The notes beneath the pieces were generated by a model. That model was not told the DNA's origin, searched no databases, and was given only the letters and a program-made list of their open reading frames with translations. Of a DNA stretch of 64,000 nucleotides, positions 1,642 through 56,174 are shown in pieces. The position numbers and the translations under genes are program-made. Source of the DNA: Azolla caroliniana (lineage: Eukaryota > Plantae > Polypodiophyta); contig JBHGNT010000001.1 of assembly GCA_043228905.1 (NCBI GenBank), positions 7,130,001 through 7,194,000 on the forward strand, given 5' to 3'. Within the stretch, counting starts at the first letter, position 1. Every line of letters starts with the position of its first letter.

Positions 1642-2986
1642 CCACACAAGTAACTTTACAAAAAAATACAAAAATACAAAATCAAATAAATCATGGAAAG
1701 GAGTGGTGGAAACGGCCATGCAAACGAGGAGTAAAGAGGCACGTCGAAAAGGTACGAGGGGCAATGCTATTATAGTACACAACCTGCACATGCGGAGGCT
1801 CGAAAAAGGCGCCAAGATCCAGAGAGAAAAACCCCCACGCATCGAGACCTTCTCCTATCGCGAACCAAGGAGAACAGACGCAAACAGATGCGTGAAGATC
1901 AATCGCCGAGAGCTCGCACACAGAGAACCCCCTCCCTCAGAACTTTCTCTCTCACACTCTCCCCACCACCAAACCTCGCCAACACTCTCCGACCTCGACG
2001 CAGAGATGGACTGCCAAACGTTGTCTGAAGCCGCCAACAAATGGCTACGGCAGCACGGACTGGAGGGTTTCTTAACGATCATGGAGGCGGTGCCACACAA
2101 GGAGGCCGAAAAGATTATCAAAAAAATCGACACAGAGGTGATCACGGAGGAGGCGATCCGTGCGTTAATAGGCCTTCCGGAGGGAGGCATCTACACGATC
2201 GACAATCCTACCTCCGAGCAACTCATCAAATATTTCGGTGAGTACTCTCTCGCCAACAAGGGCTACAGGACACAGGGCGGCGAAGATATGCTATTCCGCG
2301 AAATTGCCCGTGTGCTCCATGAGTTCGGCCACGTGTACCCTCAACCCCCCGTCATGCCTCAGAACCGAGCAGGCTTGATCATCGCAATGTACGAAGGGGT
2401 CAAGGTAGATTGGCCGGTGTTGATCGCCGATGGGCTGTGTACGGCGATTGATATAGTAAGAGGAAAGGACGGCAAGGAAGGCCGGAAAATATGGCATGCG
2501 GTGACGCAATGGCTCACCCTATTGGCGCCACCGATCGAGCCCGTCCAACCCAAGAAGCGGGGAAGAGCAACGGACGGCACCCCGAATCCTGCTTCGAAAC
2601 GGCAACAGTTGTTGGCCTCCAAGGCCACTAAGGGGAACACGACCGACGCAGAGAAGGTGGCAAAGGAATGCGCAAGCCGGAAGCGGCCGACGGACACACA
2701 CGAGGAGACACCGGCACGGCCCCTGACGAGCCCACTCCACCGACCGGTGCAGCAAGAAACGGACACCTTGGCAGCGAGAATGAATGTCGGGACTCAGGCA
2801 GAGGAAATGGAGGAAGAACCCACGGAACACCTCCAGCGACGGCCGGTGAAGAGCACCACTAAATCAGCCGGGAAGCGTTCGGACCCACAGAAGGATAGAA
2901 CGCCCGCAACTCACGCCAAGGGAGGCACCGAAACCGGTTCGGAGGGAACTGGTCACAGAAGTCCCTGCACAACAGGCAGCACCAGT

Positions 2987-3369
2987 TGTCATGATATGGC
3001 AAGACTCAAACCCATGACCTTATGCTACATGGGTCGAGCTCTTACCATTAGACTATGAATTGTAATTTGTAGGATATTATTTTCATTTATGCTTTATCAT
3101 AGAAAACTGATGTATATTCCAGATCTCGCACAAGGCATTGTTTTGAACCAAATTAGTTCAACGCCAGTCTTAAGCCTCCTTTTATAGTGTTTTTAGGAAT
3201 AATTCTGAAGCTTCTAGAATGTTCCAGAGAGATCTGGAATATACATCAGTTTTCTATGATAAAGCATAAATGAAAATAATATCCTACAAATTACAATTCA
3301 TAGTCTAATGGTAAGAGCTCGACCCATGTAGCATAAGGTCATGGGTTCGAGTCTTGCCATATCATGACA
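2987..3369. mobile_element. 383-bp palindromic (fold-back) insertion with TG..CA ends; solo-LTR-like or MITE-like
   Basis: 141-bp inverted arms 2987-3127 and 3229-3369 with one mismatch; 101-bp spacer; flanks CCAGT/CCGGC (5-bp TSD with two transitions); AT-rich inside a GC-rich ORF. Confidence 0.92.
3180..3224 (-). promoter_or_regulatory. Heat-shock element plus TATA box
   Basis: GAAgcTTCtaGAAtgTTC at 3207-3224 (four in-phase nGAAn units), 20 bp upstream of TATAAAA (3186-3180) on the minus strand. Confidence 0.7.
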
Positions 3370-5201
3370 CCGGCAAGTCCCGTAACTCAGGAGCCGGATA
3401 TACAAAAACCAACCGTCCCAGCCGGCCAAGACCAAGCAGACAAGGGGCGGCTAGCTGAAACACACTCAAAGCCGGAACGGCAAAGGGGTCAGCTAGCAGA
3501 ACATGAAGTGCAGCTCGACACAGTAAGGCGGGACTAGCCACCGGCGAGTGAACCCATTAACCAACCCTCCGTGCAAGCGCAACAACAGTGCACCGGCAGC
3601 CAATGGCTCCGGTGGATAGGAGAACAAATTGCCGGAGTAGTCGGATGCCATAGAGACGGAGGAAAGAGTGCAAACGGAACGGTTGCTCGTCACAACCGAT
3701 GAACTGGAGACGGCCCGGTCAAGGATCCGGTGCCTCAAACAAGACTTGGATCGGATCACGGGAGACATGGCCAAAATGGCCTTAACCGCAACGCATATCC
3801 ATGCACCGGTGACTCGGTTGATGAACAGAGGAATAAGACCCCAGAGACTCAAACTGTCCCGGAGAAAGATGCGGCGCAAGCCCAAGAGCTTGCGGAATTA
3901 CGAGATGAGCTCGCCGCACAAGAAGCATTACGGAGCCGCGAACGCGACTTGAAGAAGGCGGTCGAAGAAGAATTAAAAAAGACTGTTGAAAACCTTCACC
4001 GGGCAGAGGAAAACCTACGTAAAGGACATCATGCTTACGACCGGCTGAAGGAGGAAAAAGAGAAATTGCTGCAGGAAAAAGACAAGCTGAGACGGAAATC
4101 GAGAGGCTGAAGGAAGAGCTCCATCAACAGAAGGACCGGGAGGACCGCGCGCGCCGGCAGATCAACCAAAGGCTGAAGCAGAAGACCGATGATTTCAATC
4201 ATCTGCATCGGGACTACTAGCAGCTGGAGACGGAGTATAAGCAACAACAGGAACGGATGGTTGAGCTCCAGCAAGAAGTTGATAGGGCCACAACGGCACT
4301 CACCGAAGAACGAGCTGAGAGTTCCAAGCTATTGGAGGAAGCGGCGAACGACCAGATGGAGCTCCACAAACAAAACCATGAAGACAAGGAAAGAGCGACA
4401 ATGGTATTACAGAGGTTGCAAACAACCTATCAAACTCAATTGTCGCATTATAGGGAGCAGGAGGTGGACACGGTCCGGATCATCAAGCAATTGAAAGAAG
4501 AGCGACAAGCCGCAGAAAATAAATCACGGATGGGAGCCGAACGGATCCAGTGCATCCTCCGGTCATGGCTCACTAAGACCAAAAGCTTGATTGACGACAG
4601 CTCTGTGCGTTGGTGGGCGAAATGGGTGCAAAATACAGCGGAACTCCAACTACTCAGGGCGGACGTGGAAAACCGGCGGAAGGAGGGCGACGACTGTTAT
4701 ACGCTGACCTCAGAGGACTTCACCACCATAAGGGATGAGCTGGCTAAAGATTTCACAGCCCTGGTGGAGAAACAATTGGTACAGGTTTGGCAGCTCGTAG
4801 CTCAACTGGACGACGATCAGCTGGAGGCTCAAATCCAGTTCGAAAGCTATGAGCAGTCCCGGCTTCGAGAAGAAAAAGCGAGAAAGGCGGCAACGGTCAA
4901 CCTTAGTGATGAGGAACCGTCGTTGGTACTAGGACCAGACGGGGACCAGGCCTGGGTCAGTCAGCCAGAGACAAGTTCAACGAAGGAAACGTCGGTGCCA
5001 GAGCAACAAACGGAGCCGCAGCCCCAAATGGAGGAGGCACAAACGGAGCAGCCACAACCACAAAAGGAACAACATCAACAACAGATTCCCGACGAGCCAT
5101 TGGAAATTTTGGAGCAAAGCATTCTGGACATTTTGGACGAAGCGTAAAAGGGCCGGATAATGGGTTCGACGTACAAGGTACTGTCCCACGGGCGTGCCAT
5201 G

Positions 5202-5662
5202 TGTTACTGGCTGGCAAGAAGGCTTAAGGAGGTCCAAACCAAAGTGTGAAAGGAATAGTTTATTCGGGAACTGTTGTAATTAGTAGTCTTAAAATATATA
5301 GTAATTTATGAGAAGATATGGACGGACGGACCGGAATCGGTATGCCGATCGGGATCCGGACTGATCCCGAAAAGGTGCTTGTTGGCACCATTTTGTATTT
5401 CGCACCGGAGACCTATATAAAGGCCCGGTTACAATGCAATCAAGAGCGGATAATTAATAGAACTTATTGCTTTAATCTTTCAGCATTGATTACCGTTCTG
5501 TGCTTATTATTGTATCTTGCGCATGTTAATGATGTGTTGCTAAGTAATCGATTAAGGTCTCATTAAGCGTTGTGTCGTAAGTCATTCTGTCGTACCACCC
5601 TTTGGTGAAGTGTCTTAAGTGGACACCCTGTGTTAGGCTGTTGTCCGGCCCTAGGATTAATA
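5202..5662 (+). repeat. 3' LTR of the first Gypsy element
   Basis: Begins TGTTA at 5202 (alternative start TGTTG at 5272), has CCTATATAAAGG near 5412, ends ..ATTAATA (decayed AACA) immediately before Copia coding sequence. Confidence 0.7.
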
Positions 5663-8361
5663 GTGGCTGCAGATTCTATGTAACCTTTATTGATGATTGC
5701 TCAAGGAAAACATGGGTGTACTTCATGAAAGAGAAAAGTGAAGTGTTTGAATGTTTTCGTAAGTTCAAATGCATGGTAGAAAAGCAGGCAGGTACAAGAA
5801 TAAAATGTTTAAGATCTGATGGAGGAGGAGAGTATTTCTCCAATGAATTTTCGGATTTTCTATGCAATCAGGGAATAAGAAGATAGTTCACATGTAGATA
5901 TACTCCACAGCAAAATGGAGTTGCTGAGAGGAAAAACAGAACATTGGTGAACATTGCAAAGGCTTTGATGACAAAGAAGAATATGTCATTGTACTATTGG
6001 GCAAAAGCTGTAAATACAACAAATTATATTCTAAATAGATGTATAACATCGGGAGTACATGAAGCAACTCCTAAAGAGTGTTTCTATGGAAGGAAACCTA
6101 GTTTAGAACACTTAAAAGTGTTTGGATGCCTTGCATATGTACATGTGCCTGTAGAAGTAAAAAGTAAGTTGGATCCAAAAGCAGAAAAATGTATTCTTGT
6201 TGGCTATTCAAACGAACAAAAAGGGTATAGATGTTATAACCCTATAACAAAGAAGATTGTGACAAGTAGGGATGTAATCTTTGATGAGTTAGCCAGCTGG
6301 TACAGTCCAAAATAGAATCCAGAGACTGATGAAGACAATGAGATTGAAGACAGAGACAAATTTAAAAATGTAGAAGACTGCAACAGAGATGGAAGCAAGG
6401 TTGGACAGCAAAGTCCAACATCAACAAAATGTTCTGGACCATCAAAAAGCTCAGATGGTAAATCTGATTCGAATTCTTGGAGTGGAAAAAGTGAAGGACA
6501 CAAAAAATATGATGATAAAAAAGGAAAACAAAAAATGCCAGAGTATGAAATGTTGGATGACTTGTCTAAAAACATGGAAGATGAGGATTCAGATATGTCA
6601 TTGGATGATTTTCTTGGTATAAGAAGATTGAAAATCCCTGGTATGGTAAAAGCATTGAAGGATGCAAATAAAAAACTGAGAAGATCAGATAGAGAGAAAA
6701 AAATTGTTGAAAGATTTGGTTATGATACATATATGTCTATGCATTATGCATATATGTCTAAGGTGGTACAGATCCCTGATCCAAGTAGTTTTGATGAGGC
6801 TAAAACTGAGAAGAAATGGGTGGATGCAATGCAAGAAGAGATTGATGCATTGGCTGAAAACAGAACATGGGATTTGGTGAAGTTACCAAAAGGAAAAAAT
6901 GCGGTAGGTTGCAAATGGGTCTACAAGACAAAGCATGATTCCAGTGGGAATGTAAGTAGACATAAAGCAAGATTGGTTGCAAAGGGATATGCCCAAATGC
7001 AAGGAATTGATTATGATGAGACATTTGCACCGGTTGCAAAGATGGCAACATTGAGGACATTACTGGTTGTAGGTGCAGCCAGAAGATGGTTTCTTCATCA
7101 TATGGATGTAAAAAATGCCTTTTTACATGGTAACTTGGAAGAAGAAGTGTATATGTGTCAACCACTAGGTTTTGAAGATAGGAAGCATCCAGATTATGTA
7201 TGTAAGCTGAAAAAGGCTCTCTATGGACTGAAACTGGCACCAAGAGCATGACACAGAGAACTTTCAGATTATCTGAAAAAACTTGACTTCAAAATGTCAA
7301 AGGTTGATTCATCATTGTATGTTAAAAGGAAAGATGATTGTATTGTTGTGATTCTGATTTATGTTGATGATCTCATCATTGGAGGTGATTCCATGGATGA
7401 AATAAGTAAGTTGAAAAGAAATTTGGAAATGCAGTTTCATATGAAAGATTTGGGAGATCTGAGATATTTTTTGGGTATTGAAATCACCAGATCTGAAAGT
7501 GGTATATATGTGTTGCAAAGACAATATGCAACAACTATGTTGAAAAAGTATGGTATGCTTGGATGCAAACCTATTGGAGTACCACTAGATAAAAACTGCA
7601 AATTGAGGGCTGATTTGGGAGCCAAAATAGAAGATGTAAACATGTATAGGTCTATGGTGGGCAGCCTTATTTATTTGACCATAACAAGACCTGATTTGAG
7701 TTATGCATTTGGATTAGTCAGCCAATTTATGCAACAACCAACAAAGCCGCATTTGGACTGCATTAGAAGAATTCTGAGGTATGTAAAAGCTACTCAGAAC
7801 TATGGATTGTTTTATAGGGCTGATTTGGACATAAATCTGGAAGGATATACAGATGTTGATTGGGCTGGAAGCCAAACAGATAGAAGATCCACAAGTGGAT
7901 GTATGTTTACATTGGGAAGTGCAGGTATTTCATGGAGTAGCAAGAAACAAGCTATTGTTGCATTGTCTAGTACTAAAGCTGAGTACAGAGGAGTTGCCAT
8001 AGCCACTTGTGAAGAGGTATGGATCAGAAGATTGCTTGCTGATTTGGGAGAGTATATAGATGGTACTGTCATAATCTGGTGTGACAATATGAGCAACATT
8101 CAGCTTGCAAAAAACCCAGTGTTCCATGCAAGAACAAAGCACATTGAAGTGCATTATCACTTTGTTAAAGAAAAAGTGATTGAAGGAGAAGTTGATCTGG
8201 TGTATGTGAATACAAATCAGCATGTTGCTGATATTCTCACAAAGGGATTGAGTGTGGAAAAGCATACACAGTTTCGGAACATGATGGGAGTTGTAGACAC
8301 TGATATGATGGCTGAAAAGCATCATGGAAAAGAAGTTGTAGATAACCCCAAGAAAGGATAA
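5663..8361 (+). pseudogene. Copia pol (integrase core, RT, RNase H)
   Basis: [43 protein letters not shown] in one frame with three premature stops (about 5884, 6313, 7249). Confidence 0.95.
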
Positions 8362-8379
8362 GTTGAGCTTGAGGGGGAG

Positions 8380-8818
8380 TGTTGAGAAACAAGCTCAACA
8401 TGGTATGTGATGCTTATTGGGAAATAAGCTATAATAGCTATTTAGCTACTTGTGAACAAAAAGGAGAAATAGCTAATTAGCTACTGACAGCTATTTAGCG
8501 ACTGACAACTAATTAGTTGCATGTGTAAGTAACTTATTACTTAGGTTAAAAAGTAAGAGAGTAGGTAAGTAAGAAATATACAGGAAGTAGAACTCTGAGA
8601 GAGAGTGTGAGGATAGAGAGGAAGAACTCAGAAAGTGAGAGTAGAAGAGAGAAACAGACGAGCGCAAGTAGAGCTCTGCGTGTAATGAAATAGAAGAAGT
8701 TTTGGTTGCTACAGAGGTAAGTCTCCTTCCCCCTTCCCTTCTGTGTTTGAGCACCAAACGATCCAACACACCACGATCCGCCGCGCACATAAGAAGAGCC
8801 CGAGTGCCTTCTTCACGT
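8380..8818 (+). repeat. Copia 3' LTR, main part (last 10 bp displaced to 16130-16139)
   Basis: Starts TGTTG right after the PPT; terminal inverted match TCTTAACA appears after the nested Gypsy. Confidence 0.85.
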
Positions 8819-9611
8819 TGTCTAGATATTACGCAAGTGCGTGTGGAAACGAGGCGGGACCGCGGGGGTCTCGAACCAAAGAGCAAGCGAGGGAGGAGGA
8901 AGAGAGAGAACCGGCTACGCAGGACCGGGGATACACAGGGACACGGCCCTTCAGCACGGAGAACGCGAACAGACACCGACACAGACAGATGCGAATGACT
9001 AAATATGTATATTAACAAAAATGGCTAACACGACTACAACCCTCGATGGGGCACAGGTTGGCTACAACCGAACAGGCCGGCGAACAGATGCCGATGCTTG
9101 TTCGCTTCGACGCACAAAGGGGGAGCAGGTCGGAGGTGCTGCCGGAAGCACTCGGGCGTTCCTCGAAACAGCGCGAGCCTCCTCGGAACCCTGCACAGAA
9201 AAGCTATGGAGCTCAAGAAGGAAGGAAACAGAGAGAGAAGCGTCCAGAAACGGTCTGGCAGCACTTCGTCCTCTCTGCGCGAGATGCCTGCAACAGCTCT
9301 TTCTTGCTCCTTATATAGGCTGACGAGCAGGCCGTCATGTCAGCTTTATTCCCTGTCCCTTTTGGACAGGGATCCGCTCCGTTCTTCACGCATCCGCGTA
9401 GTTACGCCGCCGACTCGTACAGTTCCTTAGCTCGCGCGCGCGACCGAAAAGACTGTTCGCGCGGTCTTTGTCTCCACTTGTGTTAGGGCCCGTTCCTGCC
9501 GATTATCCTCCTAATTCGCTTCTATGTACAACTTGGAGCGTGCGCGCGTGAAGAACCGGTTCCCACGCCTTGGTGCGCTGATTCCGCCTATGGACGGTTT
9601 TCTTCACGACA
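8819..9611 (-). repeat. 3' LTR of the nested Gypsy
   Basis: Direct repeat of 15333-16125; next to the PPT AGGTGGGGGCGGA (9624-9612). Confidence 0.97.
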
Positions 9612-9682
9612 TCCGCCCCCACCTAACCGCGCATCCTCCGGTATGCGCCAAGAGAGTTGGGACGGAGAAAACCGGCCCGTCT

Positions 9683-12600
9683 TCATTCCTCACCCGTCGG
9701 TTCTTCCTCGTTTTCGGATCGTTCATCACTGCTGACTAGGAGAGCCGGGTCTGGCTCGTCGTCGTGTCGCTTCTTGAACGCTTTGATCCGCTTCCCTGCA
9801 ACCGGTATCGCCATTCTCGTGCCGTCTAGTTCCGCCAGGTGATATGTCCCGTTGTCATTGGCGCTCCACACCACGTAAGGCCCGAACCACCTTCGTGCGA
9901 ACTTCCGTGTAGCTCGGTGCTGGTTGTCGAGGCTGCTGTCGTAGACGAGCACCCAGTCACCTTCGTCGATTTTCTTCGGTCGGAGCCGGTGCGTTCGGTC
10001 GAACCTGGCTTTGTTCTTTGTCCTCGCCACCCGGAGCTTCTCCGCAGCCAGTTCCACGTCCTCCGGTCTCCGCTCGAGCTGTCGTATACGCGCGGCCAAC
10101 AACTCCTCCCGGCTCATCTCGTCCCTCCAGTCGACCGTTGCCCACGAGGAGATCGTCCGTTCTATCGGCATGATCGGCTTCTGGCCGAACATGAGCTCCG
10201 TCGGCATGTACCCGGTTACCGAACTGTGCGTGGTCCGGTCTGCCCACAAAGCATAAGGTAGCAGCCGCGGCCAGTTACCGACTTGGCCTCCGCATGCTCG
10301 AACCAGCGCCTTGACGATCGGTCCGTGTCCGCGCTCCACCTTTCCATTCGCCTCCACCTTGTACGCAGTGGTGAGCGAGAGCTTGACTCCCAGCCGGTCG
10401 AACAGCTCCGCGGCTTCTTCGGCGTCCAACTCCCCTCGGTCAACCACGATCTTCCCGACGCACCCGTACCGGCATATCACGTCCTCGATTAGGAACCGAC
10501 ATACGGCCGCGGTCGTTTTGTTCGGAAGGGCCCGGCCTTCCACCTGGTTCGTCAGATCCTCCCGCGCTAGGACCAGGTACCGCATCTGTCCTACCCCCAT
10601 TGGCATCGTCACCAGATCTACCATCCATTTGAAGTGGATGGTCGGAGGGTACGTAGGGTGAAGCTCGTCCCGGTGTCGGACCACGGAGTGCATCTGACAG
10701 CTCTCGCAAGTTGTCACTAATCGATGCACGTCCCGGTACAGTCCCGGCCAGCAGTACTTCTCCTTTATCTTCTCGAACGTGGCCCAAGTTCCACGGTGTC
10801 CGGCCCAAGGGCTGTCGTGGTAGGCCGTCAGCAGCTCCTCCTGTTCTTCCTTCATCGCCACCACCCGGAGCGGAGCGCCGTCCCTCTTCTTCGGGTGCTT
10901 CCATAGATAGCCATCCCGGAGAAAGAACCGGTACGCTTTCTTCCGGATCCGGTTGGCCTCGTCTTTCGTCCATGACGCATCCGGCGCCATTGTCCTCAAG
11001 AACCCGCCGATCTGCAGCCACTCCCCGTCGTACTTGCTCGCGTCGAAGTCGTTAAGCGCCGGAGTGCTCGTCCCGCCGGTTGTTACGTATGCTGCCTCGA
11101 AGAAGTCCACGCCGACCTCTTCGTCCTCCGAAACCATGCCGCCCTCGTCATCGAATCTCGCCCTTGAAAGCATGTCGGCCATGGCGTTGTCTTTCCCGGA
11201 AATGTGTCGTATTTCCGGGTCCAGGGACTTGATGTACGCTATCCACCTGAGCATTGCCAGGTCCGGCGTCGCGCATCCGGAAACCATGCCGAGAATCGGC
11301 ATGCAATCCGTCTCTATGATTACCTCTGTCCCGATCAGATAGTCCTTGTCGGCCTTCACCGCCGAAACGATACCCCAGAGTTCGCGTTTAACCTGGGCGT
11401 ATCCTCGCTGCCGCTCACTGAGGACCTTCGCGCCGAATCGGATCGGGAACCGATTGCCGTCCTCGTCTTCTTGGTTGACGACCCACCCGATTCCGGTCGG
11501 ACTCGTGTCAACCGTTATGTACACTGGGGTGCCCTTCCTGTAGACGGCCTTTCGGAGCGCCGGTGCTGCCGAAAGAGCCTCCTTCAGCTTCCGGACCGAC
11601 TCCGTGTGCTTGTCTAGCCATTCGAATCTTCGCCCTTTCTTCAATAATCCGTACAGCGGCTCCGCGACGTGCGCGTAATGCGGGATCCATATGTGGTAGA
11701 AGGCGCATGCTCCCAAGAATCTTCGTACTTCCGTGACCGAGCTGCAATCAGGCTTCATCGCGGAGATGGCTTCTACCTTTGCCGGAGACGGTTTCCGGCC
11801 ATATGGTCCACATAAATGTCCGACCACCATGATTTCCGACTGCCCGAAGGCTGATTTCTCCCCCGAGAAGGTGAGCCTCGCAGCCTCTAGCCTTTGCAGC
11901 ACCTTCTCGCAGTCGTCGATGTGCGTCGCCACGAATCGCCGGCATCCGTCCGGCCCGATCGTCTCGTCCTTTTCTGCTACCGGGCATCCCTTGATCGGGA
12001 TGTCGTCCAGAAACGGCATGGTGATGTCCGGGATGCAGTCCCTCAGAACCTTGTTCATCGCATTCACCATGTGGGCCACCGAGTTGGTCCCTCCTTGCGG
12101 CAGCGTACACATCCGCACTAGGCCGAGGGGAGTTCGCATCGTCGTAATGTCTCTGCTCTCCACGGCTAGCTGGAACTGGTCGTACCCTGAGTATAGATCA
12201 CCGACCGAGTAAATCGACCTTCCGGCGAAGGCCTCCGCGAACTCGTCTATGGTCGGTCCAATCCCTGCGTTCCGAATGGTCACCCTATTGACCGGTTGCA
12301 GGTCCTGAATGAAGCGCAATGATCCGTTTTTCTTTGGTACAGTAAACCATCGGTTTGAATACGGGGCGCTCGACGGCTTGAGAATGCCCATATCAACTTT
12401 CTGCTTCAACAGCTCCATCAACTTCGGGATGTGAGCTCTCGGAACCGGAATTGGCTTGAGATTCCACGGTACATGCGGTACCGTGAATATCACCATCGGC
12501 TCTACGATCGTCGGGTTTACGCACCCGATTTCCTCCGGTGAGAATGCGAAGGCTTTCCCGTGCCTTCCGAGCATTCTCCGAAACCGGTCTTCCTCCGCCG

Positions 12601-13164
12601 GTAGTAGGAACCCGCCCCCACCGATTTTGAGCTCCCGGAGCGTCTCGTTGGTGAAGGTGTGTCCTATACAGGCCGGATCTCGTAAGCTGGGGTCCGATGC
12701 AACCCCTTTGATTCGCGACTCGCTGCCCTCCGGTAACGGTACCGCGACTGGCCTTACCTTCCGGTCCACAGTCTTGTACTTGGTGCTTACTCGGGCCGTC
12801 CGATCCGACTCGAGCCCCCGACCAAAGTCCGCGATGACTTCGTACATTTCTTCGGAACATACCGGTATCGTCCGGTCTTCGTTAAGGTCTTCTTCGACTA
12901 CCTTCCCCAGCATTCCCAAGGTGTCGTCGAAGGAGACCGCCTCCACGGCGCCACTGATTTCTTCGTCAGGGCCGAGAACTCCGCACGCTCGAAGTCTCCC
13001 CTCCGTCTTTGTTTTCTCTCGGCCGGCGATGCCGACCATCGTACATGCTCCGCTGTCGGAGAAGCAAAATTTCCTACCTATTGTACACGGTTTTATCGTA
13101 CAGATGTGGGGTTTTCCCGGAGCATCCGGACTGTCGCGGCCCCACGCCTTGGCAGTCCTCTCTA
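9683..13164 (-). CDS. pol: Pol (RT, RNase H, integrase), probably reached by -1 frameshift from gag-PR
   Basis: Uninterrupted frame from the GGATTTT site through the 1118-aa ORF: DLYSGYDQ, LPQG, FLDD, TVDTS, AMADMLSR, H..H..CESC, GKVERGH, WFGPY. Confidence 0.93.
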
Positions 13165-15288
13165 AAAATCCTCTCGGTTTTCGGAACCGAGGGAGTCGCG
13201 GTTACGTTCGTGGTTCGGCCGTACCGTCAGAAACTGGACCGAATGGCGCCCGTCTTGGCTTTTGACCCTCGCGTAGGCCGAACCATTGTCCAGCACCTTG
13301 GTCTCCATTTGCGCCGCCGTGATGTACGGCTCTCCCAGTATGACCGGATGCGAAGACGTCTCCTGCACGAAGAAGTGCTGGTCAATCTCGACGTCGCCGA
13401 TCTTGACTCGCACATTCGGACAGGCCCCGTGCAGTTCCTCGGTGGCGCGCGTTGCTGCCCTTATTTTCCACCCGTGCTTGGTGTTGATCGGCCATTTTCC
13501 CTTCTTATAGAAGTCCATGGACATCAAATTGATCTCCGATCCGTAGTCCACCAAAGCTATCACCGGTTCCTGGACATCGCCGATCTTCACCGGGGTTTCC
13601 GTGGTCGCTCGGGCCCAGTGTGGTCTCGAATAGTGGCTTTCCGCTCACTCGTCTCCCAGCGCCATGTCGTCTAGGTGCGTCGTCCGCACTTCCACCGGTC
13701 TTTCCGGTTCTGTCTCCGTTGACAGCCTCTTCCGTTTCACCAAGTCCACGATGGAGTCGTGGAACTCCTTCTTGGCGATTCCCAGCACCTCTCGTAACGA
13801 CAGCTCCACCTTGCTATCGAGGATCCGTTCCTCCAGGACCTTTCGTAAGTCCGTGGTCCTTTCTATCTCCGTCCCAAGACGGTACCCGCCCTTCTGGGGT
13901 TTATCTTGCGTACCGGCCCCGCCGGCTTCGTCCCGTCGTGGCCCGGACCGGGTCTCGTATCGTTGTGAGGGCCCGGTCGTCCCGGGTTTCCCCACCCGCT
14001 TCTCTTCTACCAGAGCCTCGTAGTTCTGGCAAGCGGCTTCCACGAAGCCCGTCTTTTCCTCGACCGGGTCGCTCCACCCGGTCATCTCCCGTACCCGTTT
14101 CTCCGCACGGTCCGATTCCTCCCTTTTAAGCCTTGCACCGGCAAGGCCTTCCAGCATTGTCGGCCAGAATCCGGCTTTGCTTTCCCTTCGGGCCTCGCCG
14201 CCCCCGACTCGAATGCCGGCCGACGCCGAGTAGTGGACGGTTTTCGCGTGTCGGGCCGCCGCCTCTTCCATCAACCTTTTCATACCACCTCGCCCGTCGT
14301 TTCGGCTCAGGGCCCTTCGGGTGTCGCTGGCATGCACCCGTCCTTCCCACAGGTACACCACCCTGTTCCTCAGCGCCTCCGCGAAGTCGCCGCAGTCCTT
14401 CCGAATGTGGCCGACTTCATCGCACCACATGCACCTGTTTCCTGCCGCCGGCCGTCGGTCACGAGCCGGTTCGCCACCTTCCCTTCGGGCTTGCGCGATT
14501 TGGAGGTCCTTTATCGCCCTCGTCAATTCCTCCAGCGCCGCTCCTCCGGTTGAGCCTCTGACTACGCCGGTCGAAGCCGAACCGGTTTCCAACCATTCTC
14601 GGGTCTCTTCCTTTCGCACCTGTGGCGCTGGTTCGAGCTTCCTTGCTGCGACCGAGCCCGACCCGGTTGCCCCGTTATCCGCCCATTCTCGCCGTTTGTC
14701 GAAACGGCCACAGACTTTCTTGACAGCCGCCCAGTCGGTAGTGAGCCCGTCTTCGGTTTCCAGCAAGAGGCCCACTTGCTCCCGATCCCGCTCGTCGACC
14801 GACTTCACAAACAGCAAGACCCGGCTCGTGTCCAGGATGGTTCGGTCGAGCGCCGAAAGGCGCGCAAAGTTTTCCTCGAACTCCCGGAGGAGTGCCGACG
14901 CGTTTCTTCCCTTCCCCGGGGACTCCACCCATTCCATGAACCTTCGCTTCGAAAGCTGGAGCGCGTCGTCCAGCCCGTATTTCTCTAGGAGCCGACCTTC
15001 GAACTCCTCCCAGGTACGGCTCTCCGCCCGCACCTCGAGCACCTCCGCATGGATGCTCGGCATCGCCACTCGGGGAAATCCGGCAAGACGCCTTTCTTCC
15101 GGAATGTCCCGCATCAGCATCTCTGCACCGTAGGACGCCAAATACTTCGTGGCATCCTTCCCATCGAACCGGCCGATCGTGCCGACGACCGCCTCAATGG
15201 CTCTGTCGAGGGCACCGGTGCCCTCGCGCGCGTTTACAATCCGGTCCACGGCCGAAGCCATGGCCTCTGCAAGATCCGACCCCCTCAT
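13162..15288 (-). CDS. gag: Gag-protease (CX2CX4HX4C knuckle, aspartic protease) with one in-frame TGA at 13645-13647
   Basis: CMWCDEVGHIRKDC; LVDYGSEINL and VILGEPY; ORFs 13645-15315 and 13162-13590 share a frame (GDE*AESH, likely TGG>TGA). Confidence 0.88.
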
Positions 15289-15310
15289 CTTCTGCTCTTC
15301 TGCCGCCTCC

Positions 15311-15328
15311 TTCACGTTGGGTTCACCA
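15311..15328 (-). promoter_or_regulatory. Primer-binding site complementary to tRNA-Trp
   Basis: Plus strand TTCACGTTGGGTTCACCA matches the plant cytosolic tRNA-Trp 3' end (TTCACGTCGGGTTCA-CCA, from memory) at 17/18; 4 nt from the LTR. Confidence 0.85.
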
Positions 15329-15332
15329 GAGA

Positions 15333-16125
15333 TGTCTAGATATTACGCAAGTGCGTGTGGAAACGAGGCGGGACCGCGGGGGTCTCGAACCAAAGAGCAA
15401 GCGAGGGAGGAGAAAGAGAGAGAACCGGCTACGCAGGACCGGGGATACACAGGGACACGGCCCTTCAGCACGGAGAACGCGAACAGACACCGACACAGAC
15501 AGATGCGAATGACTAAATATGTATATTAACAAAAATGGCTAACACGACTACAACCCTCGATGGGGCACAGGTTGGCTACAACCGAACAGGCCGGCGAACA
15601 GATGCCGATGCTTGTTCGCTTCGACGCACAAAGGGGGAGCAGGTCGGAGGTGCTGCCGGAAGCACTCGGGCGTTCCTCGAAACAGCGCGAGCCTCCTCGG
15701 AACCCTGCACAGAAAAGCTATGGAGCTCAAGAAGGAAGGAAACAGAGAGAGAAGCGTCCAGAAACGGTCCGGCAGCACTTCGTCCTCTCTGCGCGAGATG
15801 CCTGCAACAGCTCTTTCCTGCTCCTTATATAGGCCGACGAGCAGGCCGTCATGTCAGCTTTATTCCCTGTCCCTTTTGGACAGGGATCCGCTCCGTTCTT
15901 CACGCATCCGCGTAGTTACGCCGCCGACTCGTACAGTTCCTTAGCTCGCGCGCGCGACCGAAAAGACTGTTCGCGCGGTCTTTGTCTCCACTTGTGTTAG
16001 GGCCCGTTCCTGCCGATTATCCTCCTAATTCGCTTCTATGTACAACTTGGAGCGTGCGCGCGTGAAGAACCGGTTCCCACGCCTTGGTGCGCCGATTCCG
16101 CCTATGGACGGTTTTCTTCACGACA
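15333..16125 (-). repeat. 5' LTR of the nested Gypsy
   Basis: Direct repeat of 8819-9611; CCTATATAAGG TATA on the minus strand near 15825. Confidence 0.97.
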
Positions 16126-20665: not shown

Positions 20666-23011
20666 ATGGGCAGATGCAGAAGGCACCCAAATCATATAAT
20701 TGTCGGTATCTGCGCTTATTGCCTCAACAATCGCCTCTTAGCTCTACTCAAAGAAGATCAAGAAGAAGAGAAATATAATGAAAATCATGAAGAAGCAGGC
20801 AACTGCAATGACTCAGACTACGCCTGTTCTTCATCTGTTTGTCTCTCTCCGATGTATAGCAGAAGCATCATACAGAAGAGCAGGAAATCTACTACTGTTT
20901 TGGATGATTTCAGACAAATTGAGGCCAAGTCCAACAGTATGGGTTCTTCTTCAATCTATCATCCTTACTCTGTTTATTCATCGCCTTGTTATTTCAAATC
21001 TTCTTCAGATTATCACTTCTTCAGAGATAGAAACGCTGAAAGTCACAATGGTCATAGCAAGAAGAAGGACAAGAAGAAGAAGAAGAAGAAGAAACCATGG
21101 CTTCATTTGCCATTCTTGCAATGGAATCAAAGCTCTAATGAAAGATGTGATGGATCCCATGGTATGAAGCAAGCTAAGGGTAAGTCTAACTATACCATTT
21201 TCAACAATTCCTTGAGAGAAGTTCATGACAGTCTCTCCAAAGGTGATGTCTCTTCACTTCTCTCTTCTCCGAATGTGTCAAGACAATGTGCATCACAGCA
21301 TCAATGCTCATCTCCCATCATCACAAATGCAAGGGGCTCTAATAAGATCCATAGAAGGAGCAGCAGTAACTGTAGTGATAGGAGGAATTGGTATGATAAT
21401 GGAAGCTACATAATGGATGGGAATGTGGATATTGGAGGTCATAGCATCACAGGGTACATGGAGTTGGATGGCAATAGCATCAATGGCCATGTGGGTGTGG
21501 ATGCAAATGGCATAAACCACATCAATAGACATGTGGGCATGCATGCTAGAGCCAATGGGCATGTGACAATGGATGCCAATGGGATCTATCACATCGATGG
21601 TCATGTGGGTATGGATCCTAATGGAATATACCTCGTCAATAAGCATGTGGGAATAGATGCTAGTAGTGGCAATGGTCAGGTGGGCATGCATGCCAATCAC
21701 ATCAATGGGAATGTAGGTATCAAAGCCAACCTCAATGGGCATATGCGTATGTATGGAAGCCACATCAACAGGGATTTAGACATGAATTCCAATGTCATCA
21801 ATAAGAATGTGGGTTATATGGATGCTTTAAATGATGATTATCACGTCCATAGGAATGTGGCTATGGATGGTAATAATAGAAGTTTTGACATCAAGAGACA
21901 TATGGGCATGGTTAAAGAAATGCCTCAATCTCCCCCTGGAACTCATAGGGATGTATCTCTTGACTCGACTCCAAGGCTATCTAGTGTCAGTGCATATTCT
22001 CCGGATGTATTTACAAGAAGAAAATTCCATCTTTCAGAGAAAGATATACCGTGGAATCACCGGGCAGCGTGTGCTAGTAATGGACGTTGTGTCTATAATC
22101 ACAATGCAACCAAGCTCGAGGACAAGCAAACCAAGAGGAATGTACAAGGGACTTCTGACAATCCTGGGTTCAAAAAGGAGTTTGTCCGAGAACCTTACAG
22201 TAGTAGTATATTCTCCGAAAAGAGAGTGCCAATGGGGAAAAGCCCATTGTCAGCGGGATTATATAACTCTTCAACGAAGAGATTGCAATCGATCAACCTC
22301 CCGAAACTTGTCTCCAGTAAGAGGAGTGAGATGGTGTCTAGTGATTGTGGAAGAGATGTGAGGGTGTCACCAATACCTACTTCGACAATGCAATTTGATA
22401 AGGAATGTTCTCATCATAATCCACGAAAGCATCAGTATCAGATGGACGATCGGGCTCGATCAAATCATCGGGAGTGCTCGGATCCATCAAAATATGAGGA
22501 GATATCCTCATTTTCCGTGGATGCTGCACTGCCCTATGGTAGAGACGATGAACTGTTGAGAAGCCCCAAAATGGCTGCATTGAAATTAAGGTTCAAACAG
22601 AATTTAAATCTCAAGAGTCCAAAGCATGAGCATGCTTCAAAGGATGGTACTAAAGAGTATTCGGCTTCGCGATGGAGCAAAACATTGAGCAGAACCTTGT
22701 CGCCGATGCTAAGCTTAAGAAAGGCGAAGAATTTGCACAAGGATGTGTATCAATCAAATTATGAAAATGATGATGATGATGATGATGGAGATGATTATGA
22801 GTGCAAGAGAATTGATGAGAAACAATCTTCTCAGAATGGACTGGGAATCGGAAGTATTTTGAAGAAGGGGCCAAGAAGGGTGAATAATGAATCACAAACC
22901 AAAAGGAACCTCGTTCTTTCAGCATTGGAAGGAAAAGGGCCACCTCAAAACTACTCCTTCTTGAACAAGGATTATAGTGCTTTTACCTTCTACTTTAGCT
23001 CTAGAGGCTAA
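20666..23011 (+). CDS. Intronless DUF740/OCTOPUS-like protein (781 aa) with internal NGHVGMDAN-type repeats
   Basis: N-terminal CRRHP..GICAYCLNNRL zinc-finger-like motif typical of DUF740-type proteins; Ser-rich body; long ORF in AT-rich surroundings. Confidence 0.8.
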   Translation: MGRCRRHPNHIIVGICAYCLNNRLLALLKEDQEEEKYNENHEEAGNCNDSDYACSSSVCLSPMYSRSIIQKSRKSTTVLDDFRQIEAKSNSMGSSSIYHPYSVYSSPCYFKSSSDYHFFRDRNAESHNGHSKKKDKKKKKKKKPWLHLPFLQWNQSSNERCDGSHGMKQAKGKSNYTIFNNSLREVHDSLSKGDVSSLLSSPNVSRQCASQHQCSSPIITNARGSNKIHRRSSSNCSDRRNWYDNGSYIMDGNVDIGGHSITGYMELDGNSINGHVGVDANGINHINRHVGMHARANGHVTMDANGIYHIDGHVGMDPNGIYLVNKHVGIDASSGNGQVGMHANHINGNVGIKANLNGHMRMYGSHINRDLDMNSNVINKNVGYMDALNDDYHVHRNVAMDGNNRSFDIKRHMGMVKEMPQSPPGTHRDVSLDSTPRLSSVSAYSPDVFTRRKFHLSEKDIPWNHRAACASNGRCVYNHNATKLEDKQTKRNVQGTSDNPGFKKEFVREPYSSSIFSEKRVPMGKSPLSAGLYNSSTKRLQSINLPKLVSSKRSEMVSSDCGRDVRVSPIPTSTMQFDKECSHHNPRKHQYQMDDRARSNHRECSDPSKYEEISSFSVDAALPYGRDDELLRSPKMAALKLRFKQNLNLKSPKHEHASKDGTKEYSASRWSKTLSRTLSPMLSLRKAKNLHKDVYQSNYENDDDDDDGDDYECKRIDEKQSSQNGLGIGSILKKGPRRVNNESQTKRNLVLSALEGKGPPQNYSFLNKDYSAFTFYFSSRG

Positions 23012-39671: not shown

Positions 39672-42311
39672 CTAAGAGAGTTTAAACGACCATAACTGTG
39701 CTGGTTTCTCCTCTGCAGCTTCTGTAATTTGGTTTTCCTGTACCAATATTGGCTGAAGCTCGTGCAACTCTAGTTCTTCTTGGTCCCCATCTTCATACTT
39801 AACCTGGATAAATTACAAACTTGAGGTAGTTTCAACAGCCTACCAGCATAAACACAACAAAAGTTCAAACACTAGCTTTTTCCTTTTGCAGATATATGAT
39901 ACAGACTCGGCATACCCTATGCCCAATGAGGACAGAAAGGCCAGGAATTCCATTAAATTTTTCTTTATTTACTCAAATGCCCCTGTTTTTAAGCCACCTC
40001 TCACGCAATATATGTGTTGTTTGAGCAATTATATGGGCAATTTATCCCTCTTTAGATTTGTTATTTGAGCAATTAAGTGGTCAATTCATCCTCTTTGTCT
40101 CTCTTTTGGGGGTTGACCGATGGCAATTGACAAAATAATGGATATTGTGAGGGCATTTGGGGAACTAAAGAAATTTTTTGGGGAATTTGGGAATTTTTTC
40201 ATAGACTAAATTATCGTTCAGACCTTATAATATTGTGTCTTTTTGTCGAATTTCAGCACCACGCCATCATAGAATTTCCCATCAAAATCCTTCTTCACGT
40301 GTTTCCCTACATATATATCATCCCCTGAAGTAATAGTTTTCTGATTGGTTCCAGATTCAGTAACTCTAGCCTTGAGCCCGTCTTTACCGACTTCTTCTAC
40401 CTTCTCTTTTGCAACAGGTTTTTGTTGCTTTGCAGTAGATGGGGACTTCGAATTTTTCTTTGATGAAGAATTTTGCTGTTTCAAACTTCTTGAAACTTCA
40501 CTACTTTTTGGAGTGACTGATTTCCCTTTACTGCTTTTTATTGTACTGGGCTTCTTGGAATCCTTGAGCGATTTTGAAGGACTCTTCACTCCACTTTTAC
40601 TCGCCTTCTTTGCTGTACTCTCTACCCCTGCTTTCTTCAGCCTCTTGGAGCTTCTGCACAAATTATTAGGAAGCTCCTTGTTACTCTTTATTTTAATGCT
40701 TATTTTTTGTTTTATATCACGCAAGTTTTTTCTAATATAGTATTCTAAATATGCAAAACAGTTAAAACTGTTACTTCTGTTGTTCTTCATCCTCAGCTCG
40801 GGACCTCTTTTTGTTTGTGGAGGGTGTATTTTCTGAAGAAGCCAATATTTCCCTCACTTCCCACAGCTCCAAATCTTCTTCATCTCCATCCTCATATATA
40901 ACCTGACCAGAAGGTTGGTTTGAAAAGTTTCATCTAACCAATGTTGCTTATATAACATATGTACAGGCGGTACCTCACCTTGAACCATTTTGATTCAGGA
41001 TCATAATCAACAACATCACCTGAATAGCTTTTCTTCCCAAATCTCTTTTTCACCTTCTGACCTTTAATTGACTGAATATCCTCTTCAGTCACCTGCTGGT
41101 TGAAGGTGAATTTTGTAAGCATGCAACAACTATCATTTTTCCTTAATATTCAATATTCAAAAGCTACTACTTACATTGGTTTCTCCAACAGATACAGCTT
41201 TCTGACTATCATCTCCCACTACAGAAGGAAGATTGCTATCTTGAACACTGTTAAAAACTTTTGGATTTTCCTCTTGAGCATATTCTCCACTCTCATCCAC
41301 CACCATTGGTTGAGTTTCAGATGAACAGACAATCGGTGTTATGCCATCTTTACCTTTCTCTTGTGTCAAAGGAAGTTCAATATCCATTTCTTGCTTAGTT
41401 CTGGCATCCAAATTTTCTTCCACAGGATCCTTCTTTTCTACTTCTGTGTTTGTTCCACTCAAACAAACACCTTCTATTCCCATTTGCTTTGAAGCATCTT
41501 TAATTTCAGCAACAGCTTCCGATCCTACAGTTGATGATGGAAGCACAGGCTGACACGCTTCAAGAGTCTTGGCTAACAACATCAAAGCATCAAAATAAGG
41601 TTTAAAACATCACAACACAGAAACGTGTGAAATGAAACAACTTAACATGAGGTATGAGAATAATCACCAGAAGAAGCACCAACTCCTTCTCCAGATAAAC
41701 ATGCTGAGGTAACCACACCATCATCTAATATTACCATATCATCAAATCCAGATCCTTGTTCATTGATGAATTCATCCCGAGGATTATTTTCCGTACCAAC
41801 AACCTCTGCCACTTCAGAGGGAACACTATTAAGATCTCTTGATAAAGAAGGAAAACTGAAAGTGGAATCTAAACCAGTGCCTTTATTCAAATCTTCTGAA
41901 TTGCTTAAAGTTTCATCTTTTCCTTGTGCATTACACTCCTCTACTGGTATTTGACTTGATTGTTGCGCTGAAATGCCTTTTAGTTCAGGATTGATACTTT
42001 TGTCGGTCCCTCTATACAATTGCACAAAATACAATAATGTTATACAAACATATTTAAAAATATAGAATGAATATCATCAGATATAATTCATCCCCAATTT
42101 GTAATAGCAAATAGCATCTCCAGAAGTCGTGTATGAAATTATAAATGAGAATATGACTATCCAGGAACTATACTATCCTATGGTAAACAGAAAATAGAAA
42201 TGCATCCTGAAAAACAACATCAAGAGAAGGATTCAAAAAATTAACATCTAAAGAAAAAACATCATACTTGTTGACTCCATTTATTTCAATTCCATGGCTT
42301 TCAAGCTCCAT
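39672..42311 (-). CDS. Protein with two PTM/DIR17-like Tudor domains (about 529 aa, 7 coding exons)
   Basis: Phase-compatible GT-AG exons 42311-42268, 42011-41668, 41572-41175, 41092-40979, 40902-40775, 40653-40224, 39803-39672; motifs KVKKRFG..Y.G.V..YD....WFKVIYEDGDEEDL and VKKDFDG..Y.G.V..FD....YYKVKYEDGDQEEL; probable 5' UTR exon ending near 43268. Confidence 0.85.
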
Positions 42312-52377: not shown

Positions 52378-53835
52378 AAAAGAAGTCGAGATATATATTT
52401 ACATATTAGGGATGAGTGGCTACATCAAGCTTCGCCTTTGTACAAAAGTTGGTGTCAAAGTGCAGCGCACGAAAGTGAAATGATGTTGCACATGTAAAAA
52501 AAACAATTGAGCTGAAGTAGCGAGTAATTCCTAGTCTTGACAAGTCTTTCTTCCAGAATTGTACACAAGAATATTGATTAACAAAATGTAGCTGCAATGG
52601 TTTGGCTCACCAAAGCAAATAGGGGCCAAAAGCAGCCAAACTTCCTTTCAAATTTGTATGGGATCCAAGATGTTTGTGGAGTTTAGTTCACTCAAATGAT
52701 TTGTGTGGCTGAATAAAGCATGGTTGTATAATGTTTACAAGCTGAAGCATATTGAATATTGATGGTCATAATTGTGTTAAGGATTTCAACAAAATCACAG
52801 TAATCTAGTCTTCATGTTCTTGTACTTAAATGCCTTCATGATAGATGATAATTGATGAGCTTTGCTAATATTAAATGTTATGAGCACGGAGCTTAAGGTG
52901 ACTATTTTTGGTACCCTTGTAATGAGTTTGTGACAATTTTCGGATGATAATGGATGTATCTGCTGCTCTGGGGCTCTGGGACATGTATATTGTTTTGCTA
53001 TCATTACATTTTATATTTACCCAAGGATACAAAAACATAAATTCTAACATTATGTCTTGTTCCTTTTGTCCCTACTATTCAAACCAAAGATTATCCAAAA
53101 GCCGTTTTCTATTATTTGTCTTAGCCAAATGTATATTGTTATGCATACAGTTTTCTTGGAGAGAACACCTCATACATTTGTACTTGAGTTGGTAGCAAAG
53201 ATAATCATTTCATTAGGGTTTATAGCATGCCCTTGAGGAACAAAACTTCCTATAATTGGATTAGAGGTTGATTATTTACAAACCAAGGCATTTTGATTGT
53301 ACACTAATGCTAGATAATGCTTGGGAAAATTTCAGAATTTTGATAAATCCACAAATTTTTCACAGAACATTCGGTTTTTTATGTAAACCCACAATGTTTG
53401 AGAGAACTACTAGTTACTTCAGAATAAAACATGGAGTCTTTCTCTATTGTGCTTAACATCAGAACCATTTCTCAAGTCTCGAAACCAAAACACCAATATT
53501 TTTTAACATAAGAGTCAAGACTGCATCTTTATACAATTGACTTACATGTAAAAATATCAAAAGCCCATCCTACATCTCTTGTATATGTAATAATGTATAG
53601 ACCCACTGCTTTCACAATGTAGTTTAGATCATTGTGTCTCGTTACATAGGATTGATTGCAATGACCCTTACAAAAAATAGCATAATAGAATCCTCGACAT
53701 TTCTACATATAAATAAACATTGTTTGTATTCATGGGATATAATATGCTACATTGATAAAGACAATTTGAGTAGTAACGGTAAATTTGTAATTTACGAGAT
53801 GGGTTAGTATGGTTGTTTAGAATGGTATTGTAGTA

Positions 53836-55955
53836 TCAAAGACCCCTTTTTGTAGGGGTTCTTGGAGATGAGTTTTGGTTGGCCATTGGACCATAATCTT
53901 GGAGGAGGGATCGTCGTCTCCTGAATGGGGGAGGAGCAGCCGTCACCGTGTTAGGGATTGATGCATAATCTCCTTCGTAATCCGTATTAGCCACTAAATC
54001 CTATGAGATAAAAACCAAATGATTATATATGCTAACTTTCTGTGAGACAATTCTTCACGTAAAACGGTTGGAACTTAAACATTCGTAGTTCATTCAACTT
54101 AATAATAATAAATGGTCTTTATTATCGTAAGCATAACATTTTATGCATTATTGCTTTTCAGTTAACTTAAAGTTATCTATACAGAAAATATAAGCTAACC
54201 AAATGACAAATGTTTCACATCAGCACAATATTATCATGTCATAATGCAAAGCGGTTTTCCTAATCACAATCAAAGACTTTATGTACAAATTGATGACTTT
54301 ATGCTAATCGTAACCATGTAATAGTGCAAAGAATTACCTAAGATAAGATTGAGTTTGTGTATTGACCACATATTACTGAGATATTGCATAAGTTTAACCA
54401 CTTCAAGTTAGACATGGGGAAAAAACCCTATATGGTGCGGAAAATGAGATTTAAACCATCCTAGAAATGGTTGCAAAGATCCATGTGGACAAAAAGTCAA
54501 AAGAAAGCATTTTTGGGGGAGATCACCCTACCTAAAAAGGGTAAGTTTTTTCTAGTGATTCCTACTGAATGACACGAATTTTCTAACCTTTCTAATTTAT
54601 AGTAGAGTTTCAATCCTTTCTACTAAGTTGTGTTCACCTGATGTGAACAAATACATGAAGACCTTGTTTTTCTAGCCTTTTGCAAGTTAGGCAACAGAAA
54701 GATTGAGTTTCTAATCATTCCTCACAATTGGTTTTTAAGCAAGCATTGCAAGCAGACGATATAATATCTCTTATTAGAAACACTTAGGTGTTTTGTAAAC
54801 TCAGGTTAGGGAGGCATCTGTCTCACTACACAAGGTAGCTTGGCTCCTCCTCCCATTTCAATCTTAGAAGATGACTAAATGTCAGTTGACATATTTCTTC
54901 TTCTGCTGTCTTGTTTTGTTTTTTGAGCTGAGGTTAAGAAGTGTGTATCATTCATCATGCAGATTAGTTTGATCTTCTGACTATCCACTGATGTTGGATG
55001 ACTAAATATTATAGAACATATATGTCCCACTATGCACAATATGTATAGTATGGTAATTCTTCTTCTAACCAAGCTTACGAAGCATCGATCGTCTCTCCGG
55101 CCAAGTACTCTGGTTTGTTAGTTTGTTCTCCAAACTTTTTAAACTTGGCCATATGTTACACCATGCCCAAAAAGTTCCACAGAACCAATCAAAACGCATA
55201 CACTTTAAACCCTAGACTTATGGATTGGCCTAACTTGATCAATTGCTAAGCTTATAAATTCGGTGCGCAGCATGGACTGAAACATCTAAATTGGAGATGG
55301 TGATTTCCAGGGGCCCAAAACACTTTTATGTGTGGACAGTGACAGCAAAAACCAGATTGACCAGCACCCTCAAAAGTACATTGGTTATATAAAATTGGGA
55401 TGTTTGCTTAGCACATCCTTCAATTCACACGTGAGAGCGAATTAGCAGATTGATTTAGTATGGTAGGATGTACAAATGGCCATACATTTACTCACATCAC
55501 CAATCACCTTGCATTAAATAGAATAGCGTAAATACGTTAATCAGATGCAAAGTTACCCTCTTAGAGATCACGCCCTTCCACTTCATGTATAATTCCTCGT
55601 GGTGATCATGAGCTGCCATATTAAGTTGCTGGTGATGATGGTGATCCTCTACTGTCCAGAAACGGGCAAAAAACAAAACAAAAGAAAAACAGGGTGAATT
55701 TGTATCGATCATCTTTAAGGCAATGGAGCAATCAAAAACACTTAAATATGAAGGATAAGGGATGGTGGTGTTTTGGACAAAAAGGATCACGAGGAAGCGA
55801 CTGATGGATCTTATCTCATCGTATAAAACCCTAATTTTGATGAGGGGAGAGGAAGGAGAAGGATTAAGATGTTTACCATGAGCAAAGGAGAGGGGGAGTA
55901 GGATAGAGAAGGCGAGGGCATGGAGGCAGAGTAGGCGAAGGTGAACAGACCACAT
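53836..55955 (-). CDS. Small secreted peptide precursor (112 aa), PSY-like with two DY peptide modules
   Basis: Exons 55955-55877, 55651-55557 and 54000-53836, GT-AG and phase-compatible; signal peptide; KRDLVANTDYEGDYASIPN..PPP and RRRRSLLQDYGPMANQNSSP. Confidence 0.78.
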
Positions 55956-56174
55956 CTCCTCCTCCTCTTCTTCTTCGTGCGCAAAACTAAGGTACTCTGA
56001 GAGAAAGAAAAACAGGGGTGGGAACAGGGGAAGGTAGAAGAGGCAGAAAAACAGGGGAAGGTAGAAGAGGGTCGCTTTAGTTCTTCTGTTGTTCGGCTTT
56101 GGGTTGAAGAAGAAGACAATGAATAAATGAATGAATTGACAAATAAATAGAAAAGGCAGGAAAGAAAAGAAGAA

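Follow-up and report, generated by a model that had tools for sequence, protein, structure and literature searches.

Plants have four recognised classes of sulfated peptide hormones, and to our knowledge ferns have hardly been surveyed for such hormones of their own. The systems closest to the locus described here are the PSY precursors, in which, according to the accessible text of PMC7913133, the motif DYxxxx[AP]NxxHxP is kept in 31 of 32 PSYs. In RGF6, SBT6.1 is reported to cleave RxLx or RxxL, and sites of this kind are also present in PSY1-5 (PMC7913133 and PMC7162652); TPST needs an Asp before the Tyr (PMC6698702) and is present in ferns (PMC8462819), as far as the available sections of both papers tell. 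Canonical PSYs are reported from water ferns as well, and the published fern PSYs, in the portion available, open with DY-x-P-x-G-[AP]N. In mosses, PSYL peptides with shifted His and Pro still promote cell elongation, according to the accessible part of the preprint (Lyapina et al., bioRxiv 10.1101/2024.05.13.593875).

The window, that is the whole stretch of 64,000 nucleotides of Azolla caroliniana that was analysed (contig JBHGNT010000001.1, positions 7,130,001 to 7,194,000), contains a gene of three exons encoding a product of 112 amino acids (Table 1). Both the GT-AG introns and the spliced product agree with the original prediction, which had been made from the DNA letters. The splice evidence comes from contigs of eight of the 12 listed public runs, none of them on record as RNA, so that an RNA origin is a guess as far as the records go; because two GT-AG introns are exactly lost, as in cDNA, and a single genomic copy was found, the contigs lacking both introns are best read as spliced transcript. 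Five of the eight runs examined (X2, X3, X5, X6 and X7) have contigs that skip intron 2, in accordance with the proposed junction 55557/54000. The shorter side of the bridge measures 52-93 letters in X2, X3 and X7, which belong to two studies, and 28 letters, below the threshold of 31, in X5 and X6; in X1, X9 and X4, loose ends of 13-15 letters at intron 2 continue into the partner exon. The junction 55877/55651 of intron 1 is likewise found, with acceptor 55651 used in X1, X9 and X4, while X2 and X3 use the alternative NAGNAG acceptor 55648, 3 nt further, which gives an intron of 228 nt and one residue fewer; X5-X7 span this intron via a divergent stretch. Transcript contigs extend 5' of exon 1 to at least 56086-56103 and cover the 3' UTR to at least 53563. 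We regard the gene as almost certainly real. Its residues 1-25 are hydrophobic by hydropathy, and an N-terminal signal peptide is predicted; two of the Ceratopteris homologue IDs appear, as bare entries, in the accessible part of a published signal-peptide library (PMC13503966).

Table 1. Features of the multi-module gene, other features of the window and related loci elsewhere in the Azolla genome. Plain positions are those of the window.
Feature	Position	Strand	Remarks
Exon 1, coding part	55877-55955	-	holds predicted signal peptide, residues 1-25 (55881-55955)
Intron 1	55652-55876	-	GT..AG, phase 1, 225 nt
Exon 2	55557-55651	-	His-rich prodomain; the first R-x-L-x site has its basic half, K57-R58, at the exon end
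Intron 2	54001-55556	-	GT..AG, phase 0, 1556 nt
Exon 3, coding part	53836-54000	-	both peptide modules and stop codon
Type A module, residues 65-84	53923-53982	-	tandem DY-x-G-DY, PN, Pro-rich end PPPF
RRRRSLL-Q	53899-53922	-	predicted S1P/SBT6.1-type site plus Gln before DY
Type B module, residues 93-112	53839-53898	-	DYGPMAN..SP, ends in KRGL
Two decayed in-frame module-like stretches	53755-53850	-	starts at 53850 and 53796; across and past stop codon; suggestive
Probable canonical PSY gene (L020/L021)	G000:C21:1697050-1696255	-	signal-like exon; terminal exon with full DYxxxxPNxxHxP
PSYR-like LRR kinase (P0023)	G000, C4:2.91 Mb		
PSYR-like LRR kinase (L041)	G000, C2:7.10 Mb		
PSYR-like LRR kinase (L042)	G000, C12:12.34 Mb		
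LTR retrotransposon-like stretches, several	1-16000		including a GC-rich element, 1172-aa pol-like frame
Flanks of the GC-rich element	near 8500-9430 and 15100-15940		near-identical
Long open frame	20669-23011	+	CxxHP...GxCxxCL start; no Pfam match; presumably resembles OCTOPUS/DUF740 proteins
Frame of ~480 aa	28686-30125	-	repeated TP motifs plus CPxAPRK; no Pfam match; we take it to resemble SIAMESE-RELATED CDK inhibitors, unusually long
Gene exons	40218-42073	-	Tudor match, PTM/DIR17-like, E 1e-5, under the cut-off
Ulp1-type protease domain PF02902	60895-61713	-	E 5e-8; probably transposon-borne

Runs X1, X9 and X4 carry two haplotypes at window positions 53854-53959 and 55910-55920. Taken together, their second haplotype and the form in X5-X7 show nine listed differences in exon 3, of which four replace residues (78, 85, 97 and 105) and five are silent, too few to gauge selection; DY, [AP]N, PPPF and RSLL are all spared, and a basic residue is kept at 85. 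Six exon 3 changes are shared by the second haplotype and the X5-X7 form, a pattern that hybrid or polyploid samples would be expected to give.

Exon 3 carries the two modules with the features ascribed to them, namely a basic site for each (KRDL and RRSLL), DY motifs at residues 65, 69 and 93, the first two in tandem, and a PPP run at 81-83; the first basic site is split across intron 2 (K-R/D-L) and the second is part of RRRRSLL. The His of PSY is indeed missing, since neither module contains any. The count of two PSY-like modules also stands for this gene, but the two are of different conserved types, A and B, and the Azolla copy is a short one in a family with up to six. Among 100,000 shuffles of exon 3, none contained DYxxx[AP]N twice, a motif picked after the sequence had been seen. 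The C-terminal KRGL of the type B module is likely to be a cut-off next cleavage site. As for the His-rich prodomain, it is present in exon 2 but is no hallmark of the family, as the homologues have 3-11% His within residues 25-60; in the closest homologues a short A-H-D-x-H can be aligned, and runs of His are seen in an Azolla RGF precursor too. The two decayed stretches downstream, spaced 21 and 18 codons, rank singly 67th and 106th within the window, and both together were matched by none of 93,810 control anchors at thresholds set afterwards; they are likely relics of lost modules, on evidence that is suggestive only. Because of these in-frame units in the 3' UTR, it appears likely that the Azolla copy, which keeps one module of each type, has lost further B modules to the stop codon. 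A further module-like match, at +36287, sits in a short frame enclosed by stop codons and was taken to be chance.

While a word-based search with exon 3 alone gave no match, a full HMMER search with it gave four, three of them real, and a profile of four sequences yielded 11 matches among 7995 candidates scored. Ten precursors were thereby found besides the Azolla gene, from Adiantum nelumboides, A. capillus-veneris, Ceratopteris richardii (four genes), Pteridium aquilinum and one further contig, and all matches with a species name are ferns. A search with exon 3 had been suggested for ferns and lycophytes; the former gave homologues, the latter gave no match, nor did seed plants or bryophytes, in a word-limited search that makes this range a lower bound. 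Members are annotated only as "hypothetical" and had no Pfam match among those scanned. Our counts refer to 11 precursors, with the Azolla gene represented by exon 3 and without the isoforms P0006, P0008, P0014, P0015 and P0017-P0020 and P0003, in which exons 1-2 of a close relative are read through their intron. P0007 (E 4.5e-6) was rejected as a member, having no DY module and internal repeats of another kind.

These precursors hold 29 type B modules, one to five each, with at most six modules per precursor overall, and the consensus is R-[KRS]-L-L-Q-D-Y-[ST]-P-x-[AP]-N-x-R-[ST]-P. Tyr and Leu(-2) are invariant (29/29 each), followed by Pro4 (28/29), Asn7 and Leu-Leu (27/29 each), Asp1 (26/29), Gln(-1) (25/29), Arg(-5) (24/29) and Arg9 (20/28), with variable spacers; the 29 modules are not independent, given the repeats and two pairs of near-duplicate genes, P0004/P0010 and P0021/P0022. 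In 15 of 18 intervals, modules follow one another at a spacing of 19-23 aa. A type A module, which combines DY-x(1-2)-G-DY with an Asn and an end rich in Pro, starts five of the 11 precursors and is preceded at two or three residues by an R/K-x-L-x site in four of the five. An N-terminal hydrophobic stretch is present in nine of the ten homologous precursors, and a later one in none. Thus the DY, Asn and Pro residues and the basic R-x-L sites are conserved in homologues, and the divergent or new multi-module secreted family suspected at this locus has gained fern relatives with conserved repeated modules.

In the Azolla genome itself, exon 3 revealed no paralogue, though a diverged one could be missed. 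The search of this genome with P0004 gave one other match, at E 3.6, which from its translation we took for noise; a pattern search gave 15 matches against 18 in the control, 14 of them judged unrelated, and a second pattern had one match, the Azolla gene. The locus L011 (G000:C16:7786714) shows a short LLQDYGDP between stop codons, a PSY-like start with no open context that is probably chance. Matches in the PDB were chance ones only, and the ESM Atlas returned a blank for exon 3; most feature neighbours in the list for P0009 were neuropeptide precursors of animals, at 0.78-0.80 and below the bar of 0.9, which is a lead only.

In several respects the Azolla gene resembles a PSY precursor: its 112 aa lie within the range of 60-200 aa and begin with a hydrophobic N-terminus by hydropathy, the Asp-Tyr starts (65, 69 and 93) fall in the second half, and SBT6.1-type R-x-L-x sequences (RSLL and R/DLV, the slash marking intron 2) stand upstream. 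A signal peptide, predicted here, and the short precursor are common to both, as are DY-x-P, [AP]N and an R-x-L-L that lies upstream of DY. In contrast, DY-x4-[AP]N was found in none of the 11 precursors, with three residues in both Azolla modules counted from the nearest DY, H-x-P after N-x-x is absent from both Azolla modules, and the full PSY motif from all 11 precursors. The proposed PSY likeness was therefore right about the missing His, but the spacing of [AP]N is off the PSY definition too. The opening DY-x-P-x-[AP]N of the fern family is one residue shorter than that of the fern PSYs in the available sources, which places [AP]N one residue earlier, and the family has several modules of two types; the gap from RxLL to DY is one residue (Gln) in type B and five or more in AtPSY1 and a Salvinia PSY, in the sequences accessible. 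The Azolla gene appears to be a PSY-type precursor in its workings, but not a PSY by definition.

Several DY peptides per precursor, as suggested for the locus, have a precedent in rice OsPSY1a (LOC_Os05g40850) with its four PSY repeats; in the accessible record, however, these repeats are canonical with His, have no R-x-L-L directly before DY and belong to a single gene. Moss PSYL1/2 offer a parallel of another kind, being lineage-restricted with a shifted motif and sulfation-dependent activity, but according to the available part of the preprint by Lyapina et al. they keep N-H-x-P plus an extra Asp, are reported from bryophytes alone and have one C-terminal motif. Their motif DY..D..N-H-x-P was found in none of the 11 precursors with a loose regular expression, the exact wildcard counts being uncertain from the accessible text. 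Multi-repeat PSYs and moss PSY-like peptides are thus already known. One might still see a plain divergent PSY subfamily here, redundant with canonical PSYs on the same receptor, with repeats that raise the dose as in OsPSY1a. The DY, P and [AP]N that both groups have in an RSLL/RKLL context, the intron phases of the genome's own PSY candidate and the retained activity of the moss peptides would suit such a subfamily; we nonetheless consider it unlikely, given a motif kept in nearly all PSYs and in none of these precursors, and a separate consensus with Arg9 and Gln(-1) conserved over the four ferns named above, alongside distinct canonical PSY genes.

The type A module of Azolla shares its DY start with CIF/TWS1 and has its second DY as far from PPF as CIF1 does (DY-x11-PPF). 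There is also a likeness to the PSK4 processing site RRSLVL/HTDY in the ten residues up to and including the first DY. These likenesses would agree with a sulfopeptide family of independent origin that reached DY by convergence, its A module acting CIF-like on a GSO-type kinase or as a doubly sulfated PSK-like peptide, yet they end with this one gene: the CIF1 register is found in one of 11 precursors, the CIF C-terminal tail is absent, the PSK-like run-up is not conserved in homologues, and the CIF query DYxxxxPxPPLxxPxPF and the PSK core D-YIYTQ gave 0/11, the latter without a Pfam match either. Such convergence seems to us quite improbable. RGF/GLV/CLEL and PSK precursors have the DY motif and, if the prediction is right, subtilase processing in common with the fern family, which lacks their respective HPPx[NP] and YIYTQ; the RGF/GLV/CLEL 13-mer DY-x5/6-[HKR]PP-x-x-[NP] occurs in none of the 11, and the fern RGFs examined differ. 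The gene might also encode no hormone at all, but a repeat protein that is secreted and rich in Pro and Ser, or else supply basic peptides for defence or the wall, with DY left unsulfated, as the lack of a Pfam family and of a relevant solved structure, the very variable module number and the basic spacers would allow. Conservation, however, sits on the protease site and D-Y-x-P-x-x-N and not on Pro/Ser content, which is the pattern of a modified signalling peptide and makes this reading very improbable.

The canonical PSY candidate of the Azolla genome, on C21, came from one pattern match against three in the control, which is chance level, and was credited for its context alone; we take it as a probable PSY gene. 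Its introns have phases 1 and 0 in six of seven possible models, as in the multi-module gene. Three LRR kinases fit the PSYR description in the accessible part of PMC13618415, a label given by LRR count and motif and not by a tree. In one, 26 repeats were counted, with RxG in LRR6; the other two align at ~50% over the full ectodomain and have RxG in the same place. At several LRR positions on the inner surface, the C4 and C12 kinases depart from the C2 copy. A complex prediction of exon 3 residues 25-54 with a PSYR-like ectodomain, run without alignments and with the sulfate unmodelled, scored 0.02, a value that counts neither for nor against binding.

We favour, at a probability of roughly 0.52, a PSY-derived yet distinct fern family of sulfated multi-peptide hormone precursors with receptors of the PSYR clade. 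Descent from PSY is suggested because DY, P, [AP]N and the RxLL context are shared and the intron phases 1/0 are like those of the PSY candidate; this amounts to five or six residues of a short motif and an intron pattern possibly found in other peptide genes too, and the conservation of R-x-L-L-Q may reflect protease preference only. Taken by itself, a processed, sulfated multi-peptide precursor is likely. After removal of the signal peptide on entry into the ER, a Golgi S1P/SBT6.1-type subtilase would cleave after each R-x-L-x and give one peptide per module, and TPST would sulfate every DY on its Tyr, which makes two sulfates in type A. Cuts at RxLL would yield fragments of ~17-23 aa, with Gln first in most homologues. 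At the N-terminus, an Asp-specific subtilase would finish the peptide or the conserved Gln would be kept; the Gln of type B may be removed by such a subtilase, may be cyclised or may reflect protease preference. A term search of the accessible CLEL6 preprint for pyroglutamate on CLEL6 gave no match. Basic tails would be trimmed and Pro possibly hydroxylated, and the peptides of 12-20 residues would be perceived by an LRR kinase of the PSYR clade, possibly a paralogue other than that of canonical PSYs, receptor use being the weakest step of this pathway. A bolder version, a neuropeptide-like, fern-specific sulfotyrosine class with a site per module, doubly sulfated A peptides, B peptides with Gln or pyroglutamate and a dedicated PSYR paralogue, is conceivable but doubtful.

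Main-text searches for the module motifs and gene numbers, and for PSY or other peptides particular to ferns, yielded no account of the family, although subscription papers and bioRxiv supplements could mention it; the module motif is absent from the accessible part of the PMC8462819 supplement. All four Ceratopteris IDs appear in the available frond expression lists of PMC13434465, by a presumed match of KP509 to Ceric numbers. These four annotated, unnamed genes in a transformable fern offer ready ligands to synthesise, along with candidate receptors. If the proposed explanation is true, the family would show how a ligand-receptor pair splits from PSY-PSYR, and whether S1P cleavage at each module serves plants to free several hormones from a single precursor.
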